Virus genome (UHGV): UHGV-1746005
From: a virus
Reading direction: 5' to 3' (one strand)
DNA: 20,218 bases
Part shown: piece by piece, positions 1 to 20,218 of the stretch
Layout: every line of letters begins with the position of its first letter
How positions within the stretch are numbered: the stretch's first letter is position 1
Position numbers and translations under genes: made by a program
The notes under the pieces: model-generated
Database searches by the model: none
What the model was told of the DNA's origin: nothing
The model's input: the letters and a program-made list of their open reading frames with translations, nothing else

Positions 1-403
1 GCTCTTCCGACGTGCTGTTAGTGGCACTACTGAGCTGAGTGATGCCTTTCGCTGTCAATGAAGCTGTTGGCACACCAGTAATCTGATTCCAGGGATGTGT
101 ATGACTGGATGGTGCCTTTCCGGCTGCTAGATCGTATGCAGCTTTAACCGCTTTTGGCGTTGCAGCTAATGTTTCAGAAGTGCTGTTGGTGTCGCTACTG
201 AGCTGAACTATCCCTTTTTGTGTCGTGGTTGCATCCTGGGCTGTATACTTCCCGTTAGCCAGGTCATATGCAGCCTTGACAGCTTTCGGTGTGGCGGCCA
301 GCACTTCAGACGTGCTGAGCTGAACTAATCCCTTTTGCGTTGTGCTTGCATCCTGCGCCGTATACTTGCTTTTCGCCAGATCGTAGGCTTTTTTAACTGC
401 CAG
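1..403 (-). repeat. Intragenic tandem collar repeats of the tail fiber (about 3 units of ~40-45 codons)
   Basis: Recurring DNA and protein units, e.g. AVKKAYDLAKSKYTAQDASTTQKGLVQLS / AVKAAYDLANGKYTAQDATTTQKGIVQLSS / TAKGITQLSSATNSTSEE. Confidence 0.6.
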
Positions 404-4138: not shown

Positions 4139-7100
4139 TCAACTCTCGCGTAGTCATTCATCAACGGATCATCAATTGACAGTGGCACCGTGCGCATAAC
4201 GCCCGGTTGAGGCGTGCTGACCTTTACGACAGTTCCCTGGCCTTTCGCCGAGTCTTTAGTGTGCTCTTCAATCCTGGCAAGCAATGAGGTCATCTGCGCA
4301 AACAGCCGCTTCGTTTCACCATCAAGTGAAACGGTATTATCAGCCAACTGCATTGTCGGCTTGGCACCGGAGCCGCCAAGGTCACTAATAACCTGTCCGT
4401 CTATCTGCATACGACCGGTTGGTTGCTGCAAATCGTTGGCGGCAGTCGTCACCAGGGACGTGGAGGCTGGTTCAGGCGCATTATTTTTCCGCATCCCCGG
4501 CGAGTTGCGGAGTTTATCGAATAGTCCATCAATCCCCATTTGTGCGCCGAGTTGGTCAAAGTAACTTGAGTTGCTGGCCACCGGACGCGCCTCTTCAACT
4601 GGCATCGGAGTATCAACATACACATTGCCAGCTGCTGTTGCGGTCCCCTTCCCTCGTGCACGTTCTTCGAGCGTTCCCTGAACGACTTCCCGACGCATAC
4701 CCCGGCCATTCATGAATTTGTTGACCAGATCGTTAACACCAACAGCATTGCCAATTTTGTCTACCAGACCGCCTTTCTCAAACGGGCTATCACCAGGGGT
4801 AAACGCCAGGCCAGTAGACTGATCGATAACAGCGTTATCAGGCAGCTTTTCGTGAATTGCTGGTGCGCTATGATCTACCTTAGAGCCATAAACGGCACCA
4901 TTATTGAGCATCTGCTGATACCCTCTGACACGAGTAACATATTCGCCGGTACCGGCGACTACTCTCCCCTTATCAACATGCCCCATACCAGCATGATAGG
5001 CAGCTATTGCACGACCCTGATCACCGTTATAACGGTTCATCAGCATACTTAGGTATCTGGCGGCACCATCAGCTGCTTTTCGTGTATCCATGGCATCAGC
5101 ATCGCTGAGTCCAAGATCCTCCCTTGTACCTTTAGTGATCTGAAAAGCCCCAAGGGCAGATGAAAGTTTGTTCCCGTTTTTGTCTACTGGATTTCCAGTT
5201 CTCTGGCCTGCACTAGACTCTGCGGATGCAACTGCTGACAGAATCCCTTTTTCAAGCCCATACTTACGTTCAAGCTCATCAAAATAATCGGCATTGTCAG
5301 AAATCCATTGGTATCCGGCAGCATTTAATTTTGGCAAAGAAACATCCTTGCCATTGTTAAATCGACGTTTATCTATCTCATATGCACTTAATGCTTCCTC
5401 CTTACCTGTAGCAGACTGGCCCAAGGCAGCATCAATTGTTTGTGCTGCTTTATTTCCTGTTTCTACGGCATTTGCCTTGATAATCTGATTGGCAGTTTCT
5501 TTAACTGTTTTATTGCTATCTTTCGCTGTATCTAGGGATGCATTTACAACACGAGTGACAATATTACCCTTTTTAGGGGTATATTCAGTTTTAGGAGCAT
5601 TGCCCTCCTGACGTTCTTTAGCAGGTGTTTTTAATTCAGGTTTAACCTCTTTCGCATCCGCTTTTTTGACTAGCTTTGATGCAACCCAGGCTACAGGGGT
5701 GCTCTGAACAGCGGCATCTACAACTTCACCTGAAAGCTCTTTTGCGGCACTCCATAGATTACTGCCAGCCTCTTTAATGTATTTCCCTGGGTTCTTAATG
5801 AAATCAATTGCACTATTAATTGCATCACTGAAAACCTGTTTCAGGTTATCGACAGTAAAGAAGTTTTTGATGGCGTCTAATTTTTCGTTCAGATTCTTTG
5901 TAGTGTCACTGAACCAGGCTGAAATAGCATCGCCAATCTTGGCTGTGTAATCGTTGAATGTTGTGGATATGGTGTCACCAAGGTTAGAAATATATGTTTC
6001 TAAATTGGTAATCCCACTATCAATGGCCTGGGCAATACTTTCCGTCGAAAATGATTGCAACATATTGCCGATATCCTCAAATCCAAGTGATTTGAGAACG
6101 CCACCAATGGCATTGCTAATACCAGATACCAGTCCTCCCATATCGAGAACGTTAGCCAGTGTATAAGCCGCTTTTTGCTGAAAAGATGGATCTTCCCCAT
6201 CCTTAAGCCCAAAGGTCCGACGTTGTGCTTCTGTATCATTCCAACCGGTTACCGCATCATAGATACCTCCAGCCACCGTGCCGACTAGCGGAATTGCGCG
6301 TAAAGCCCCCTTTGCAAAAGCCTTAACACCTAGTTTCTCCAATCCCTTAGTTGCAAGTTTTCCGGCACCGCGAGTAGCCAATTCGCCAGCTTCTTTGGCA
6401 GCAGCTTTTTTCCCACCAAAGCCCAATAAGCTTGCAACTTTTTTTATACCTAAAGCGCCTAGTGCCATCGAGCCAACTTTCTTTAGTGCCCCACGGCCAA
6501 AAATAAGGGAAGCAATACCACCGGCCCCCTTCCCTAACAGGCTAAATAATTTGGACAGCAAGCCGCCCTTCTTTTTCCCGGTGTTTTTGGCTATCTGATC
6601 AAGGGCGCTGAGAATCTTGTCATTGCCCTCTTTAATTTCGCTGGTCTGATCCTGAAGTTCCTGAACCGTCCGTTTTTGGGTGTTAACCTGAACGACATCG
6701 GCACTACTTTGCGATTTACGCCTAAAAAAACCTTTTCTACGGCTGTTATCGTCATTGCCACGAATCACATCGGCAATTGACTTTCTGGCACCATTAAGCG
6801 AACCGCCAACTTCTTTTGATATTCCGCCAAGCTCCTTTCCTGCTGCCCACAATGGACCAGCAACGGCATAACCTAAAGCATCGACGGCACGAGTCTCTGA
6901 AGGGTTACCTATGCCTTCAGCTACTTTTGACAGTTTTTTTAATAAACCCGATTCAGCATTTAGACGCTCATCATCCTCTTTGCGCCTGGCCTTTTCAGCA
7001 CGTTCAGCACGGGCATCTTCCGCTGCGGCCTTACTCCCTGACTTTCCAATAAAACGACCACGCGCATCGCGTTGGTTTTGGCTTTTTTGCGCACCGCCTT

Positions 7101-7812
7101 TTTGACCGAACATTTCGCGAGCGTGTTCGGCTGCTTCGGTCCGTTGCGCCTTTACATCTTCTGTTATAGCCTTCCTGCGTCTTTTTTTACCCTTTGGTGT
7201 AGTTGATTTGGCCTGCTGTTCCTGTTGAGCAATGCCCTCCTGAACTACACGAGAAACGTCCCCTAAATTAAGCCGTTTCATTGCGTCAACAATAGGGTCT
7301 ACTGATGGCGCATTGGCCACAAAGTCTGGCCGGGAATTTTCGATTGTTCGATTTAATGCCGACACACTGCGAGATACTGGGTCAACCGTTGCAACGCGTT
7401 CCCCTTTCAAATCACGAGCGAGTTTGACCGTTTCTAACCGCTGTGCTTTAACATCCTCTGTTATTGCCTCTCTTCGTCTATTTGGGGGATTGTGCGCTGT
7501 TGGTGCAGCCTGCTGTTCACGGTTAGTGACTTTGTCCTCCCGTATACGAGAAACGCCCCCTAAATTAAGCCGTTTCATTGCGTCAACAATAGAGTCCACT
7601 GATGGCGCATTGGTCACAAAGTCAGGACGTGAATTTTCGATTGTGCGATTTAATGCCGACACACTGCGAGAGACAGGATCAACTGTAGCAACTCGCCCCC
7701 CTTTCAAATCTTCAACGGCTTCCCGAATACCTGCAAGCTCTTCCAGCTCTTTTGCGCTGGCGGTTTCAACCGTCCTTATCACATCGTCAATGTTGGCGTT
7801 TTTTCTTTCCAT
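4135..7812 (-). CDS. sit: Tail tape-measure-like protein with internal lytic transglycosylase (SLT) domain, 1225 aa; resembles P1 Sit
   Basis: SLT hallmarks in residues ~835-960 (DNA about 4930-5310): catalytic-type E-S in AVASAESSAG, GAFQITKGT, AAYHAGMG. Central glycine-rich hydrophobic segments typical of tape-measure proteins; basic coiled N-terminus with a tandem internal duplication. Confidence 0.8.
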   Translation of the reverse strand: MERKNANIDDVIRTVETASAKELEELAGIREAVEDLKGGRVATVDPVSRSVSALNRTIENSRPDFVTNAPSVDSIVDAMKRLNLGGVSRIREDKVTNREQQAAPTAHNPPNRRREAITEDVKAQRLETVKLARDLKGERVATVDPVSRSVSALNRTIENSRPDFVANAPSVDPIVDAMKRLNLGDVSRVVQEGIAQQEQQAKSTTPKGKKRRRKAITEDVKAQRTEAAEHAREMFGQKGGAQKSQNQRDARGRFIGKSGSKAAAEDARAERAEKARRKEDDERLNAESGLLKKLSKVAEGIGNPSETRAVDALGYAVAGPLWAAGKELGGISKEVGGSLNGARKSIADVIRGNDDNSRRKGFFRRKSQSSADVVQVNTQKRTVQELQDQTSEIKEGNDKILSALDQIAKNTGKKKGGLLSKLFSLLGKGAGGIASLIFGRGALKKVGSMALGALGIKKVASLLGFGGKKAAAKEAGELATRGAGKLATKGLEKLGVKAFAKGALRAIPLVGTVAGGIYDAVTGWNDTEAQRRTFGLKDGEDPSFQQKAAYTLANVLDMGGLVSGISNAIGGVLKSLGFEDIGNMLQSFSTESIAQAIDSGITNLETYISNLGDTISTTFNDYTAKIGDAISAWFSDTTKNLNEKLDAIKNFFTVDNLKQVFSDAINSAIDFIKNPGKYIKEAGSNLWSAAKELSGEVVDAAVQSTPVAWVASKLVKKADAKEVKPELKTPAKERQEGNAPKTEYTPKKGNIVTRVVNASLDTAKDSNKTVKETANQIIKANAVETGNKAAQTIDAALGQSATGKEEALSAYEIDKRRFNNGKDVSLPKLNAAGYQWISDNADYFDELERKYGLEKGILSAVASAESSAGQRTGNPVDKNGNKLSSALGAFQITKGTREDLGLSDADAMDTRKAADGAARYLSMLMNRYNGDQGRAIAAYHAGMGHVDKGRVVAGTGEYVTRVRGYQQMLNNGAVYGSKVDHSAPAIHEKLPDNAVIDQSTGLAFTPGDSPFEKGGLVDKIGNAVGVNDLVNKFMNGRGMRREVVQGTLEERARGKGTATAAGNVYVDTPMPVEEARPVASNSSYFDQLGAQMGIDGLFDKLRNSPGMRKNNAPEPASTSLVTTAANDLQQPTGRMQIDGQVISDLGGSGAKPTMQLADNTVSLDGETKRLFAQMTSLLARIEEHTKDSAKGQGTVVKVSTPQPGVMRTVPLSIDDPLMNDYARVD
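7150..7743 (-). repeat. Tandem in-frame duplication (2 x ~297 bp, 99 codons) inside the N-terminal region of the SLT/tape-measure gene
   Basis: Near-identical blocks at ~7211-7413 and ~7508-7710 (e.g. CCCCTAAATTAAGCCGTTTCATTGCGTCAACAATAG...), with weaker similarity extending to ~7150 and ~7743. Protein repeats: KGGRVATVDPVSRSVSALNRTIENSRPDFV(T/A)NAPSVD(S/P)IVDAMKRLNLG. Confidence 0.85.
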
Positions 7813-9411: not shown

Positions 9412-10019
<608 letters not shown>

Positions 10020-10132
10020 TAGTCATTTGTTCATTGAGTAGGAATATTGTTGTCCGGGGGGTAATCAGTGTAGGTGGAATGAGGGATATGATATGGTTAT
10101 CACATAATCAGGTTGTTTTGAGTAAAACAATA

Positions 10133-10159
10133 AAACGCCCTTTAATGGGCGTTTTTTTA
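10133..10159 (-). terminator. Rho-independent terminator (potentially bidirectional) downstream of the secreted-protein operon
   Basis: AAAACGCCC-TTTAAT-GGGCGTTTT followed by a T-run on the plus strand (TTTTTTT) and a U-rich tract on the minus strand; lies 28 nt beyond the stop at 10187. Confidence 0.6.
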
Positions 10160-10186
10160 AACTTAAATTGACTATCCTTTCAAATA

Positions 10187-10966
10187 CTATTTTAATTCTA
10201 TGTAATTTTTAAATTCTCCCTCATATTTATACATGATGCTATCAAATCCTTCCATTACATCAACGAATTGTTGTGAACATTCCGGCTTCCAAGGCGTACA
10301 CTTACGAACCATATCCATTTTTTTCTTATCCTTCGTTGTATCGACTAAGGATAGGTACCCTATAAAATTCATCATCTGAACAGGATCTTGATTTGTGAAT
10401 ATATATTTGACGTTTTGCTTAGTAGGCGAAAAAGAATCAAAAGCAGGGAACATATATTCACCAGAAAAAGAGAGTGCAGCATCAATGACGTCTGTTGCAG
10501 GAGTGCAGTTGCTCAGAATTGGCACTAAGCTAAAATTAGCACCGGAGCACACTGCATATATATCATCCCCTTTTTTTAGTTTTAACAGAGAGTCTTGCTT
10601 TGAATCCAATATTTTCAATTTGATATAATTTAGTGGCGTTGCATTTTCCCCTGGAGTAAATAATTCTACAATTGGTTTATTATTCACCATTCTTATGGAT
10701 TTTATTTCACCATACACAATTGGAATTGTGTTCCATTTTTCCTGAGCAGCAAATTCATTATCTTTAAAATCATTAACCAACTCAGATGGCAAATGATAAC
10801 CAAATTGATTGTTCATTGCTTTCGAAGCAAATCCAGACAAATAGAATGCCCTTACTAAATCATAATCTTTCTTTGAGGTAGAAAGCCAATCTGGCAATTT
10901 ATTATCAGCTATCGCGCTTCCAGCAAAAATAGCACAACAAAATGTTATTACATTAAATAATTTCAT
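10187..10966 (-). CDS. Exported (periplasmic) protein, ~259-aa precursor with Sec signal peptide; unknown function; superinfection-exclusion (Sim-like) candidate by position
   Basis: Strongly AT-rich gene. Likely start is the ATG at 10964-10966 giving MKLFNVITFCCAIFAGSAIA|DNK (n-h-c regions, AxA cleavage motif); the track ORF begins upstream at a GTG. Six or more Cys in the mature part. The upstream gene's stop (10974) overlaps the start region. Confidence 0.6.
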   Translation of the reverse strand: MKLFNVITFCCAIFAGSAIADNKLPDWLSTSKKDYDLVRAFYLSGFASKAMNNQFGYHLPSELVNDFKDNEFAAQEKWNTIPIVYGEIKSIRMVNNKPIVELFTPGENATPLNYIKLKILDSKQDSLLKLKKGDDIYAVCSGANFSLVPILSNCTPATDVIDAALSFSGEYMFPAFDSFSPTKQNVKYIFTNQDPVQMMNFIGYLSLVDTTKDKKKMDMVRKCTPWKPECSQQFVDVMEGFDSIMYKYEGEFKNYIELK

Positions 10967-10973
10967 TTTCCAT

Positions 10974-11291
10974 TCACTCATTAATCGGTTTAAACTCACT
11001 AATTAATTCACCAAGACTATTTGGGTATGCTTTATAAATAACATACTCCGAAGAGCCATCTGAATATTGGTAAACCCCATAACAGACCAGTTTATTTATT
11101 CCTTTCTGAATAGTTTTTTGATTATAAGAATCAACCACTGTTATTCCATATGACGATAATATTTCGTTATATTCTTCAATAAGAGCTTTTCTTGTTTCCA
11201 CTGAATTGCAATCTACCTTCGAAAAGTCAACTTCATCAGCAAAAACATTAAATGTTAAAAAGGAAAGCACTAAAAACAAACGAATCAGCAT
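10974..11291 (-). CDS. Small exported protein, ~105 aa with signal peptide; unknown function
   Basis: Likely start at ATG 11289-11291 (SD AGGAG 7-11 nt upstream) giving MLIRLFLVLSFLTFNVFA|DEV; AT-rich; same operon as the 259-aa gene. Confidence 0.55.
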   Translation of the reverse strand: MLIRLFLVLSFLTFNVFADEVDFSKVDCNSVETRKALIEEYNEILSSYGITVVDSYNQKTIQKGINKLVCYGVYQYSDGSSEYVIYKAYPNSLGELISEFKPINE

Positions 11292-11312
11292 AAATCCACT
11301 CCTACGCATGGA

Positions 11313-11444
11313 TTAATAGTCATTGATCGCAAAGGCGTAAACGTGCCCAAGGTATTTCGTATAATCGGTACAAATCTCCTTTACGCTTGATGCTGCATTA
11401 ACAGTCCCAGCCATAAATAATAACGGTAGTAATAGTTTTCTCAT
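11313..11444 (-). CDS. Short ORF (43 aa) with signal-peptide-like N-terminus, first gene of the secreted-protein operon
   Basis: Not in the ORF track (below size cut-off); ATG at 11442-11444 with SD AGGTGAGG; MRKLLLPLLFMAGTVNA|ASS...; stop TAA lies 19 nt before the next start. Confidence 0.4.
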   Translation of the reverse strand: MRKLLLPLLFMAGTVNAASSVKEICTDYTKYLGHVYAFAINDY

Positions 11445-11540
11445 TATAACCTCACCTGCCTTATAACTCATTTAGGGTACATATTTTCGCCTTTAAAAAA
11501 AAGAGGTTATTAGATCCAACTGTGTATTTATTAAACAAAT

Positions 11541-11557
11541 AATGCTCTAATAAATTT
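11541..11557 (+). promoter_or_regulatory. C1-repressor-operator-like 17-mer (AATGCTCTAATAAATTT) upstream of the immunity-operon promoter
   Basis: 16/17 match to the P1 C1 operator consensus ATTGCTCTAATAAATTT (recalled from the literature); a second near-identical copy is at 13212-13228, with similarity extending ~20 bp further (TTTT(T/C)TAAGT...GAAT). Confidence 0.6.
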
Positions 11558-11595
11558 GTATTTTTAAGTCGCGAATGCTATCTTTTCGCATCATA

Positions 11596-11624
11596 TTGAC
11601 CTTTTAATCGTTCAGGCTTATAGT
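11596..11624 (+). promoter_or_regulatory. Sigma70-type promoter for the leader/icd/ant transcript (-35 TTGACC, 17-bp spacer, -10 TATAGT)
   Basis: -35 at 11596-11601 and -10 at 11619-11624 with optimal spacing; ~40 bp downstream of the operator-like 17-mer and ~240 bp upstream of the Icd-like start. Confidence 0.45.
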
Positions 11625-12152: not shown

Positions 12153-13133
12153 ATGCCGACACGGGAGATCCCCGGCGCAATTGCTAACTATTTCATGATA
12201 ACCAGGCGTTTTTATACCCGAACAGATAAGGCTGTGATCAACAGGCTACTGATAGCCGAGATCAGGGATTATTTGATTGAACAAGGACGTCTACGTTACG
12301 CAACAGTGGCAGCAGAAATAAGAAAGGAGGCACATAGAATGACCGGTAATAATTTGAATGTTGAAAAAACAGCACCTGTTACGTCAGCTACGCCAGCACC
12401 AGCCGTGAATATCATCCCCAACACCGGAGACACAATCGACAGCCAAACATTGTTGAAGATGGTCAATGAGGCACGCAAGTTATGTGGAGAACCAGAGGTT
12501 AGAAACAATAAATTCATCGAAAAAATACTCGATGAACTTGAAGGTGAATTTTACACAAAAAGTGCAAAATCCCATGGCACAAGGGCTGGGCGCTCTTTTG
12601 AGGTCATCACCATGACCTACAAACAAGCCCTGCGAGTCGCCGCGCGCGAGTCAAAAGCGGTCCGCCGTTCGCTGATCGACAAACTGGAAGAATTGCAGCA
12701 GGCAAACTCCCCTGCCCCATCGATCCCCCAAACATTACCAGAAGCTCTACGCCTGGCTGCCGAGTTGGCAGAACAGAAAATGCAGCTGGAACAACAGCTG
12801 GTGGCCGCAGCCCCTAAAGTCGATTTTGCCGACCGGGTATCAGTGGCTAATGGAATCCTGATCGGGAACTTTGCAAAGGTCGTTGGACTTAAGCAAAACG
12901 CCCTTTTCTCATGGTTGCGCCAGAACGGCATTCTCATGGCTTTTGGTGCGCGCAAAAACGTACCGCGCCAGCAGTACATTAACGCCGGGTATTTCACGGT
13001 GAAAGAAGTGGTGCTGGATGATGAAAATGGCTACCAGATACGGCTGACGCCCCAATTAACGGGTAAAGGCCAGCAGTGGTTAACTCGCAAGCTACTTGAT
13101 GCTGGTTTGTTAAAACCAGTAGCAATAGGTTAA
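12153..13133 (+). CDS. ant1: Phage antirepressor with C-terminal KilAC (ANT) domain; long form 326 aa from ATG 12153, nested in-frame short form 264 aa from ATG 12339
   Basis: C-terminal PQTLPEALRLAAELAEQK...NFAKVVGLKQNALFSWLRQNGIL...GYFTVKEV...LTGKGQQWL matches the KilAC domain and is paralogous to the C-terminus of the next gene. The internal ATG at 12339 has a very strong SD (AAGGAGG); the upstream in-frame part has no obvious SD. Confidence 0.7.
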   Translation: MPTREIPGAIANYFMITRRFYTRTDKAVINRLLIAEIRDYLIEQGRLRYATVAAEIRKEAHRMTGNNLNVEKTAPVTSATPAPAVNIIPNTGDTIDSQTLLKMVNEARKLCGEPEVRNNKFIEKILDELEGEFYTKSAKSHGTRAGRSFEVITMTYKQALRVAARESKAVRRSLIDKLEELQQANSPAPSIPQTLPEALRLAAELAEQKMQLEQQLVAAAPKVDFADRVSVANGILIGNFAKVVGLKQNALFSWLRQNGILMAFGARKNVPRQQYINAGYFTVKEVVLDDENGYQIRLTPQLTGKGQQWLTRKLLDAGLLKPVAIG

Positions 13134-13297: not shown

Positions 13298-14098
13298 ATG
13301 CAACAAACATTCAATGCGGATATGAATATATCAAACCTTCATCAAAATGTCGATCCTTCAACCACTCTGCCCGTTATTTGTGGTGTTGAAATTACGACCG
13401 ACCGCGCTGGCCGTTACAACCTTAATGCTCTACACAGAGCGAGCGGACTCGGTGCCCATAAAGCGCCAGCTCAATGGCTAAGAACGCTGTCAGCTAAACA
13501 GCTCATCGAAGAGCTTGAAAAAGAAACTATGCAGAATTGCATAGTTTCGTTCGAAGGCCGTGGCGGCGGCACTTTTGCCCATGAATTGCTCGCTGTGGAG
13601 TACGCAGGCTGGATTTCTCCCGCGTTTCGGCTGAAGGTAAACCAGACATTTATCGACTATCGAACCGGAAGATTACAACCTGCTATTCCGCAGAGTCTCC
13701 CTGAAGCTCTCCGTTTGGCTGCCGACCTGGCAGAGCAAAAGCAACGGCTGGAGCAAAAAATGCTTATGGATGCACCTAAAGTCGAATTCGCTGAACGCGT
13801 TGCTACCGCCAGCGGGGTTCTAATCGGCAACTATGCCAAAGTGCTCGGCCTGGGCCAAAACTATCTCTTCACCTGGTTGCGTGATAACGGAATTCTGATC
13901 GCAACCGGTGAACGCAGGAACGTCCCCAAACAAGAATACATATCCCGTGGGTATTTCACCCTTAAAGAAACCGTGATCGATACAAGCAATGGAAGCAGGA
14001 TTTCTTTCACGACTCGTATAACCGGCAAAGGTCAGCAGTGGCTGATGAAGCGATTGCTTGATGCTGGTGTGCTGGTACCTGTCGCGGCAACGCGCTAA
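13298..14098 (+). CDS. kilA: KilA-N + KilAC domain protein (266 aa), P1 KilA-like
   Basis: N-terminal KilA-N signature (GRYNLNALHRASG...WLRT...GGGTFAHELLAVEYAGWISPAFRLKV); C-terminal KilAC shared with the upstream antirepressor (PQSLPEALRLAADLAEQK...GYFTLKET...ITGKGQQWL). SD GGAG; the length equals the 266 codons I recall for P1 kilA. Confidence 0.8.
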   Translation: MQQTFNADMNISNLHQNVDPSTTLPVICGVEITTDRAGRYNLNALHRASGLGAHKAPAQWLRTLSAKQLIEELEKETMQNCIVSFEGRGGGTFAHELLAVEYAGWISPAFRLKVNQTFIDYRTGRLQPAIPQSLPEALRLAADLAEQKQRLEQKMLMDAPKVEFAERVATASGVLIGNYAKVLGLGQNYLFTWLRDNGILIATGERRNVPKQEYISRGYFTLKETVIDTSNGSRISFTTRITGKGQQWLMKRLLDAGVLVPVAATR

Positions 14099-14993: not shown

Positions 14994-15141
14994 CATGCAT
15001 ACTTTCAACACCTCTAGTTTGCCATGAGGAAAACTCATAGGCGTCCTGGTAAGATGACGTAGTTAGCAAATCAGAACGTCCAATTATTGCAATTAATAAA
15101 CAACTAACGGACAATTCTACCTAACAATAAGTGGAGTTAAC

Positions 15142-15846
15142 ATGTTGAACCGAAGAACATTTAATGTATTCTGCGATGAATCCTGTCACCTACTAAATGA
15201 TCATAATAAAGTCATGGTATTGGGTGCGCTTTGGTGTCCTGGCACTATCACAAAAAAAATTGCTAGAGACATCAAGGGATTAAAATTAAAACACAATTTA
15301 AAACCTGATTTCGAAATCAAGTGGACTAAAGTATCTGCGTCCAAAGTTGAATTTTACTTAGAGGTCGTAGATTACTTCTTCAGCAACCCAGCATTGCGCT
15401 TTAGAGGTGTTGTTGTTCCTGATAAAGAGCAACTGGACCATGCTCGATTCCATCAAGATCATAATACTTTCTATTATAAGATGTTTTTTTATGTCTTAAA
15501 AAACATAATAGAAAGTAACAACACATACAATATCTACCTAGATATAAAAGATACTTTAGGTATTGAAAAAATTGAGAAATTAAGAGGAGTTCTTCACAAT
15601 GATCGCTATGATTACAATCATGAGTCGATAAACAGAATTCAACATATACGATCTCATGAAGTGCAACAATTGCAGCTAACGGATCTTTTCATTGGTGCGT
15701 TAGGCTACGTTCATCGAGGAATGAATAGCAACGCGGGAAAAATCCAAGTCATAAACAGGATAAAATCACATACAAACAGGGAGTTACTAAAAAGCACTCT
15801 TCCAACAGAAAGTAAATTTAATATTTTCGTGTGGGAGGCTCGCTGA
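15142..15846 (+). CDS. Hypothetical protein (234 aa), DUF3800-like by N-terminal motif; first gene of an AT-rich two-gene operon
   Basis: ATG with SD GGAG 6 nt upstream; AT-rich by hand count (about 25-35% GC); N-terminal FNVFCDESCH resembles the x-DES-G start I recall for DUF3800 proteins (unverified); the TGA stop overlaps the next ATG. Confidence 0.6.
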   Translation: MLNRRTFNVFCDESCHLLNDHNKVMVLGALWCPGTITKKIARDIKGLKLKHNLKPDFEIKWTKVSASKVEFYLEVVDYFFSNPALRFRGVVVPDKEQLDHARFHQDHNTFYYKMFFYVLKNIIESNNTYNIYLDIKDTLGIEKIEKLRGVLHNDRYDYNHESINRIQHIRSHEVQQLQLTDLFIGALGYVHRGMNSNAGKIQVINRIKSHTNRELLKSTLPTESKFNIFVWEAR

Positions 15847-16310
15847 TGCTTCAAATGCCAGATTTATTGTACTTCAATGGAAGTTGGCAAGAGTATATAG
15901 ACGATGTATATGATGTTGTTAGAGAAGATATTTTAATCTCTAATATAACGTTTAAGGGTCTCCCTGTTCGATTACGTTATTCACCGGAATATGATGGGAA
16001 AGAGTTCGGATTTTGGCATTTAGTATCAGAGGGAAAAATAGAAGAAGAACGAATACCTGATCTTGAACGGTGTAAGCGGATCCGCTGGATCGCGCATATG
16101 ATAAGGAATTATGACCATTGCGATATATCATGTTGGTCTGAAAGACGAGGACCAACTGAAGAGTGGGTAATCTGGAACGAGTGTGAAAACTACGTTGTTG
16201 TGCTATCCGCACGTAGAGACTATTGGCTTCTCAAAACAGCCTATGTTGTAACCTATGACAGTAAAATCAGAACACTCAAACAAAGCAGAAAAAGAGCACT
16301 TGGGACATAA
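15846..16310 (+). CDS. Hypothetical protein (154 aa), translationally coupled partner of the DUF3800-like gene
   Basis: ATG at 15846-15848 overlaps the upstream stop (TGATG); strong SD GGGAGG at 15833-15838; contains R-x5-H (RIRWIAH) and RNYDH motifs; the track ORF starts at an upstream GTG. Confidence 0.55.
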   Translation: MLQMPDLLYFNGSWQEYIDDVYDVVREDILISNITFKGLPVRLRYSPEYDGKEFGFWHLVSEGKIEEERIPDLERCKRIRWIAHMIRNYDHCDISCWSERRGPTEEWVIWNECENYVVVLSARRDYWLLKTAYVVTYDSKIRTLKQSRKRALGT

Positions 16311-20091: not shown

Positions 20092-20218
20092 AATAATCGG
20101 GAACTTCGCATCATCCGGAACAGCACGGACAACATAACCAGACGTTTGCTGAATAGCTTCGTAGGCACTGTTGCAAAGTTAGCGATGAGGCAGCCTTTTG
20201 TCTTATTCAAAGGCCTTA

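Follow-up and report, generated by a model that had tools for sequence, protein, structure and literature searches.

The block of three genes at positions 10187-11444 of the window, the 20,218-nucleotide stretch of virus genome UHGV-1746005 that was analyzed in this study, was identified by sequence comparison as almost certainly the simABC operon of bacteriophage P1, located in its native slot of a P1-like phage-plasmid. Window positions 10100-11600 were aligned to phage P1 46698-48199, annotated as simC, simB, and simA, with a nucleotide identity of 99.5% over 1501 bases, and the "sim region" record of 1990 in GenBank (M34382) also matched the block. Over the lengths annotated in P1, the residues identical to P1 were 52 out of 52 in SimA, 111 out of 111 in SimB, and 263 out of 264 in SimC, where the single change placed a K at residue 215 (window nucleotide 10322) in the position of an N in P1. 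Eight nucleotide differences from P1 were found in the 1.5 kb, including one non-synonymous and seven synonymous or intergenic differences, and three of these eight fell in an A-run on the 5' side of the terminator stem. The original prediction had proposed a Sim-like exclusion candidate beside immI, and the block proved to be the P1 sim operon itself at the same position. Its impression that the sequences were unfamiliar did not hold, as they have been available in GenBank since 1990 and are included in the P1 genome annotation. No evidence against the identification as P1 sim was found in the comparisons of sequence, synteny, or literature, and the sim operon in the window is an already known one and an ordinary find.

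The similarity to P1 extended to the entire region. The whole window matched P1 37168-56760 with an identity of 97.7% over 92%, and its gene order was that of P1: S, R, 16, bplA, pmgA, sit, pmgB, tub, pmgC, simCBA, c4, icd, ant1/2, and kilA, followed by repL, rlfA/B, pmgF, bplB, pmgG, 21, and 22. The nearest plasmid records were P1-like E. coli plasmids with 99% identity.

Several observations were made outside of the sim block. The part of the tail-fibre gene S with internal repeats (window 1-315) had a 75% match to P1 over 126-271 and none for 1-125. The sit gene, which encodes the tape-measure/transglycosylase protein (approximately 4846-7413), was mosaic relative to P1: positions 4846-5450 had no P1 match, while 5451-7413 were 84.6% identical to P1 and approximately 97% identical to phi456, vB_EcoM-673R5, and SJ46. 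This mosaicism may be of relevance if the injection machinery is the target of Sim. A second low-GC island at approximately 15000-16000 (33-37% G+C) corresponded to rlfA/rlfB, which is also described as hypervariable in P1-like phage-plasmids (PMC9603915). Additionally, cross-matches to P1 revealed a nucleotide similarity of approximately 66% between 12738-13007 and 13700-13969, in ant1/2 and kilA, respectively, consistent with a shared KilA-C/Ant domain. The last 55 bases of the window (20164-20218) formed the left end of IS26 (GGCACTGTTGCAAAGTTAGCGATGAGGCAGCC...), with the junction at 20163/20164 located in gene 22, at the equivalent of P1 56760 and approximately 82 codons into this tail-sheath gene. 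The closest plasmid, AP024695, has an uninterrupted gene 22, and the IS26/gene-22 junction was found in no PLSDB plasmid. Since gene 22 is broken by IS26, the source element is probably a tail-defective P1-like plasmid that is unable to form virions.

All three sim genes were encoded on the minus strand. The simC gene (10187-10966), known as the superinfection-exclusion or "superimmunity" gene, encodes a 259-aa precursor, while simB (10974-11291) encodes a 105-aa predicted exported protein that the P1 annotation lists as a "putative superimmunity accessory function", and simA (11313-11444) is a 43-aa ORF composed of a signal peptide (residues 1-17) and 26 further residues. The tight spacing and AT-richness described in the original prediction were recovered, with intergenic gaps of 7 nt between simC and simB and 21 nt between simB and simA, and a G+C content of 33.5% in 10187-11444 as compared with 46.8% in the remaining window. 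Two sets of longer reading frames were also considered. The ORF list, which used further-upstream starts, included simC with 270 aa, simB with 111 aa, and simA with 52 aa, while the starts annotated in P1 corresponded to window positions 10981 for simC (264 aa; 15 nt further 5'), 11309 for simB (111 aa), and 11471 for simA (52 aa). Hence, the 43-aa ORF, which had been described as missing from the ORF track, was in fact present there as a 52-aa ORF beginning at an upstream ATG. The shorter starts (259, 105, and 43 aa) that had been chosen were nevertheless better supported by three lines of evidence: strong Shine-Dalgarno sequences were located 7 nt before the start of simA (AGGTGAGG) and 5 nt before the start of simB (TAGGAGTGG), homologues shared the start residues of the shorter ORFs (MRKLLL.. 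and MKI.N..), and the database cluster of SimC, with 777 member sequences, had a length of 259 aa.

The three consecutive minus-strand ORFs with n/h/c signal peptides were confirmed by the ORF list and by analysis of the N-termini, each of which included a charged n-region and a hydrophobic core (Kyte-Doolittle 10-residue maximum of 2.35-2.67). Cleavage sites of the A-x-A type were identified at VNA/A in SimA, VFA/DE in SimB, and AIA/DN in SimC, where the slash marks the point of cleavage, and no lipobox or later membrane-spanning segment was found in the sequences of the three proteins. SimA, SimB, and SimC are predicted from these features to carry Sec-type export signals with signal-peptidase-I sites.

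Comparison with homologues identified the P1-type simA as an apparent truncated 5' remnant, composed of the signal peptide and approximately 24 shared residues, of an exported protein of 179-215 aa. The first approximately 41 residues of SimA shared an identity of 93% with the 215-aa gp35 of vB_EcoM-Ro157c2YLVW and 90% with the 215-aa protein of L004 (Logan SRR14689322), as well as 69% with the 179-aa protein of L005 (GCA_053108235.1). Similarly, SimA matched only the first 41 of the 213 positions of the profile phrog_3933. After the residues ...HVYAFA, the SimA of both the window and P1 ends with INDY and a stop codon, whereas the homologues run on. Full-length genes of the SimA family were located at 1993-2640 of L002, the Ro157c2YLVW locus, 1921-2568 of L004, and 4411-4950 of L005. 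In L005, the genes are ordered as ant, icd, an IS605-type TnpB gene, the 179-aa SimA-family gene, a simB homologue, a simC homologue, and pmgC, so that the SimA-family gene leads a three-gene operon with the two homologues. The simplest reading of this arrangement is an ancestral operon with three full-length exported proteins, where the P1 lineage has lost most of the first. As the exclusion described in the literature occurs with the short P1 form, the full-length SimA is evidently not required. Alternatively, simA could be functional, with its 26 mature residues acting as a secreted peptide in exclusion: its Shine-Dalgarno sequence is strong and its signal peptide intact, the ORF is 100% conserved across the P1-type cassettes, and the P1 annotation gives it a "putative superimmunity accessory function". 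This alternative is considered unlikely, since the alignment to the homologues of 179-215 aa ends abruptly at the INDY-stop, and since the conservation of simA weighs little among P1 copies that are near-identical.

The truncated simA and its two neighbors occupied a region with sharp boundaries. On the left, homology to P7, SJ46, Ro157c2YLVW, L004, and L005 had its edge at 10030, just past LPsit, the late promoter of pmgC-tub-pmgB-sit (10010-10028, minus strand; P1 annotation 46608-46626). On the right, similarity to P7 and SJ46 restarted at 11543, at the C1 repressor operator Oc4 (AATGCTCTAATAAATTT; 11541-11557, plus strand; P1 annotation 48140-48156). Because homology ends at 10030 and restarts at 11543, positions 10031-11542 were delimited as a discrete, exchangeable cargo slot of low G+C content (33%), which is filled here by the simABC cassette. 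The inserted AT-rich cassette of the original prediction has already been published, as simABC entered the literature in 2022 as low-GC hypervariable region 4 among 54 P1-like phage-plasmids (PMC9603915). The slot of P7 (L003 1153-2217) contained a DUF5384 signal-peptide protein and an outer-membrane lipoprotein, and that of Ro157c2YLVW (L002 1465-2640) contained the 215-aa gp35 and the 158-aa YfjT-like (PF27224) gp34, both of exported type. In L004, a 107-aa ORF, simB, simC, and gp35-like and gp34-like genes were stacked in the slot, with L004 209-532 noted among them. The LPsit-Oc4 slot always carried genes of envelope or exported proteins in the P1-like phages compared (P7, Ro157c2YLVW, and L004). 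The full sim cassette was found in 136 of the 480 matching PLSDB plasmids, where its genes were mostly labelled "hypothetical protein".

This distribution bears on the role of the cassette. It could represent general lysogenic-conversion cargo, with a main role in another envelope function that concerns unrelated phages, colicins, or host fitness, and with P1 exclusion as a multicopy side effect; the unrelated exported proteins in the slots of P7 and Ro157c2YLVW, the presence of the full cassette in just the 136 plasmids, and the purely putative annotation of a role for SimB would all fit such cargo. We regard this as distinctly improbable, given that the literature ties P1 exclusion specifically to sim, and that family searches indicated no other function: no match to the defence models of PADLOC-DB 2.0 was obtained for SimA, SimB, or SimC, and no NCBIfam match was obtained for SimC or SimA, while SimB had two far-sub-threshold chance matches in NCBIfam.

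The regulatory sites around the operon are likewise those of P1. As originally predicted, the operon ends in its own intrinsic terminator (10155-10122, minus strand), a hairpin of nine pairs (five G-C) with a 6-nt loop and a U-run, for which a folding energy of -13.9 kcal/mol was calculated (z = -3.97; 0 of 200 shuffles as stable). PsimA (TTTAAT..TCTAAT), a sigma-70 promoter predicted in the P1 annotation (48108-48134), was placed by alignment at 11509-11535 on the minus strand, and it is weak; neither the annotated PsimA nor the annotated PsimB was recovered by a consensus promoter scan. Oc4 is situated just upstream of the predicted -35 element of PsimA and does not overlap the promoter, and the promoters of c4-icd-ant diverge from this point. 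The operon is transcribed away from c4-icd-ant, in agreement with the divergence from the immunity promoter that had been noted. Additionally, an in-silico scan has placed two adjacent predicted ArgR boxes within P1 simC (47270; window approximately 10671) and a single one where simA and simB adjoin in P1 (47906; window approximately 11307) (PMC2409434). Lying upstream of LPsit, the sim terminator is predicted to insulate the tail operon. The three exported proteins could also be read as accessories to morphogenesis or injection that belong to the tail operon pmgC-tub-pmgB-sit, as the sim genes lie immediately upstream of it on the same strand. This assignment was rejected as extremely improbable, since a strong terminator and LPsit, a late promoter of its own, stand between the sim genes and the tail operon, since a genome-wide CRISPRi screen found simA, simB, and simC dispensable for plaque formation and lytic growth of P1 but pmgC, tub, pmgB, and sit essential (PMC10695390), and since P7, SJ46, and most P1-like phages lack the cassette.

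Superinfection exclusion is the preferred role of the cassette, although the original designation of the three proteins as exclusion factors stood only in part: simC is the only documented exclusion gene, whereas simB carries only the annotation "putative accessory function" and simA appears to be a remnant. The genetics of sim date from 1982, and what was named "superimmunity" was later shown to be superinfection exclusion; the sequence followed in 1990 and the P1 genome annotation in 2004. In the work of Maillou and Dreiseikelmann in 1990, the Sim protein (orf2, simC) was reportedly made as a precursor and then processed. The exclusion phenotype was reportedly seen with multicopy clones, so that its strength in a single-copy prophage may differ, and adsorption is said to be unaffected by sim. 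More recently, simC has been named the "superinfection exclusion gene" with reference to Maillou & Dreiseikelmann 1990 (PMC2409434), and Sim is presumed to bar the DNA of superinfecting P1 from the cytoplasm, with reference to work of 1982 and to Kliem & Dreiseikelmann 1989 (PMC8546580).

Both simB and simC were found to be under purifying selection, with dN/dS values of 0.18-0.33 against two diverged homologous operons, and of 0.18-0.20 for simB alone. SimB includes a signal peptide at residues 1-18 and two cysteines, C28 and C70, that were invariant in the alignment of homologues. SimC is composed of a signal peptide (residues 1-20), a helical N-terminal segment, an OB fold at approximately residues 58-156, and a C-terminal helical region with Cys223 and Cys230, which together with C140 and C154 make up four cysteines of the mature region that are kept across its few homologues. 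The conserved cysteine pairs of SimB and SimC would fit folding in the oxidising periplasm. The predicted structure of SimB was poor (pLDDT 51, pTM 0.32).

The relatives of SimC were few. When 1.84 billion representatives were scanned exhaustively with HMMER, only 15 matches were obtained at E <= 1e-3, of which P0002 (84% identity), P0017 (39%), and P0026 (29%) were near full length and resembled most of SimC, and the others were fragments or comprised the OB domain only. A word-indexed homology search with SimC returned only four clusters, a profile search for further full-length SimC members added none, and no relative with a solved structure emerged when PDB sequences were searched with a profile (best E of 0.16). 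As the SimC family is very narrow, the alignment available for structure prediction was shallow, and the SimC model, built from an 8-sequence alignment, was of moderate confidence (pLDDT 67.6, pTM 0.52).

SimC matched the Pfam family PF12869 over profile positions 52-144 of 146 with a score of 19.1 bits (E = 0.001), which is below the gathering threshold of 23.5. The family was matched by four of the eight SimC-family members (best E of 2e-14), and it was present in the precomputed annotation of P0026 and P0027. The central motif of SimC, E-x-x-N-D-F-x-x-N-E-x-A-A-x-x-K-W/Y ... G-x-I, is that of PF12869, "tRNA_anti-like", and the modelled five-stranded OB barrel superposed on the solved PF12869 member 3f1z. 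Viral structural neighbors of the SimC model were tRNA_anti-like or lipoprotein entries. SimC is accordingly modelled as containing a central OB fold of the PF12869 type. One BFVD neighbor of the model (E of 3e-4, with a low TM-score) was named "host cell surface-exposed lipoprotein", a name given to Ltp-type proteins, and the possible structural resemblance between SimC and Ltp is taken as a lead.

A mechanism that combines the published phenotype with the modelled fold is weakly suggested. After Sec export, the processed SimC would be located in the periplasm, where the surface of its OB fold may bind either the incoming injection apparatus, such as the tail-tube tip or the Sit transglycosylase/tape measure, or the envelope target of this apparatus. 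Binding of SimC would then abort genome transfer after adsorption. SimB could be a co-evolving periplasmic partner of SimC, for example as a stabiliser or a specificity subunit, and the P1-type simA would be a remnant, minimal or without function, of a third exported component that was formerly full length. A broader reading combines two proposals, namely that P1 sim is a decayed three-component periplasmic operon, formed by a SimA-family protein of approximately 180-215 aa, SimB, and SimC, and that the exported OB fold of the PF12869 type is a widespread, unrecognised exclusion module that jams periplasmic genome delivery and is perhaps common to Ltp-type and other prophage lipoproteins. This reading, which draws on the gene order of two diverged elements, a model of moderate confidence, and weak structural neighbors, is put forward tentatively, and as a whole is more doubtful than probable. 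The OB fold of SimC, the joint conservation of simB with simC, the truncation of simA, and the exact limits of the cassette are new here and provide handles on the action of Sim, and they help to annotate the "hypothetical proteins" at the sim locus in most records of P1-like plasmids.

Among known systems, the closest is P1 itself, where the likeness of simC, simB, and simA (P1_gp041-043; M34382; NC_005856 46786-48070) includes the flanks, the orientation, the terminator, and the near-identical sequence. P1 differs from the present element in other regions, as the latter carries a mosaic sit and an IS26 in the sheath gene. More distant sim operons are those of L005 and L004, where the simB-simC pair is located directly upstream of pmgC, as in P1, and the signal peptides and cysteines are conserved. 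SimB and SimC share identities of 59% and 47% with L005, respectively, and of 92% and 83% with L004. In contrast to the 43-aa stump of P1 and the window, both of these elements encode a full-length SimA-family protein (179 aa in L005 and 215 aa in L004). Compared with the PF12869 lipoproteins, such as the putative nucleic-acid-binding protein of Klebsiella pneumoniae (PDB 3f1z), SimC is distinguished by a predicted signal-peptidase-I site in place of a lipobox, and by extra helical regions at its N- and C-termini. Sequence kinship of the sim proteins to other exclusion proteins was found in none of Pfam, PHROGs, PADLOC, and NCBIfam. The likeness of Sim to T4 Imm and Sp, P22 SieA, T5 Llp and HK022 Cor, and Ltp of the Streptococcus thermophilus phage TP-J34 is one of functional analogy only, as these superinfection-exclusion proteins are envelope proteins of phages or prophages that act at adsorption or later to stop infection before the DNA reaches the cytoplasm.
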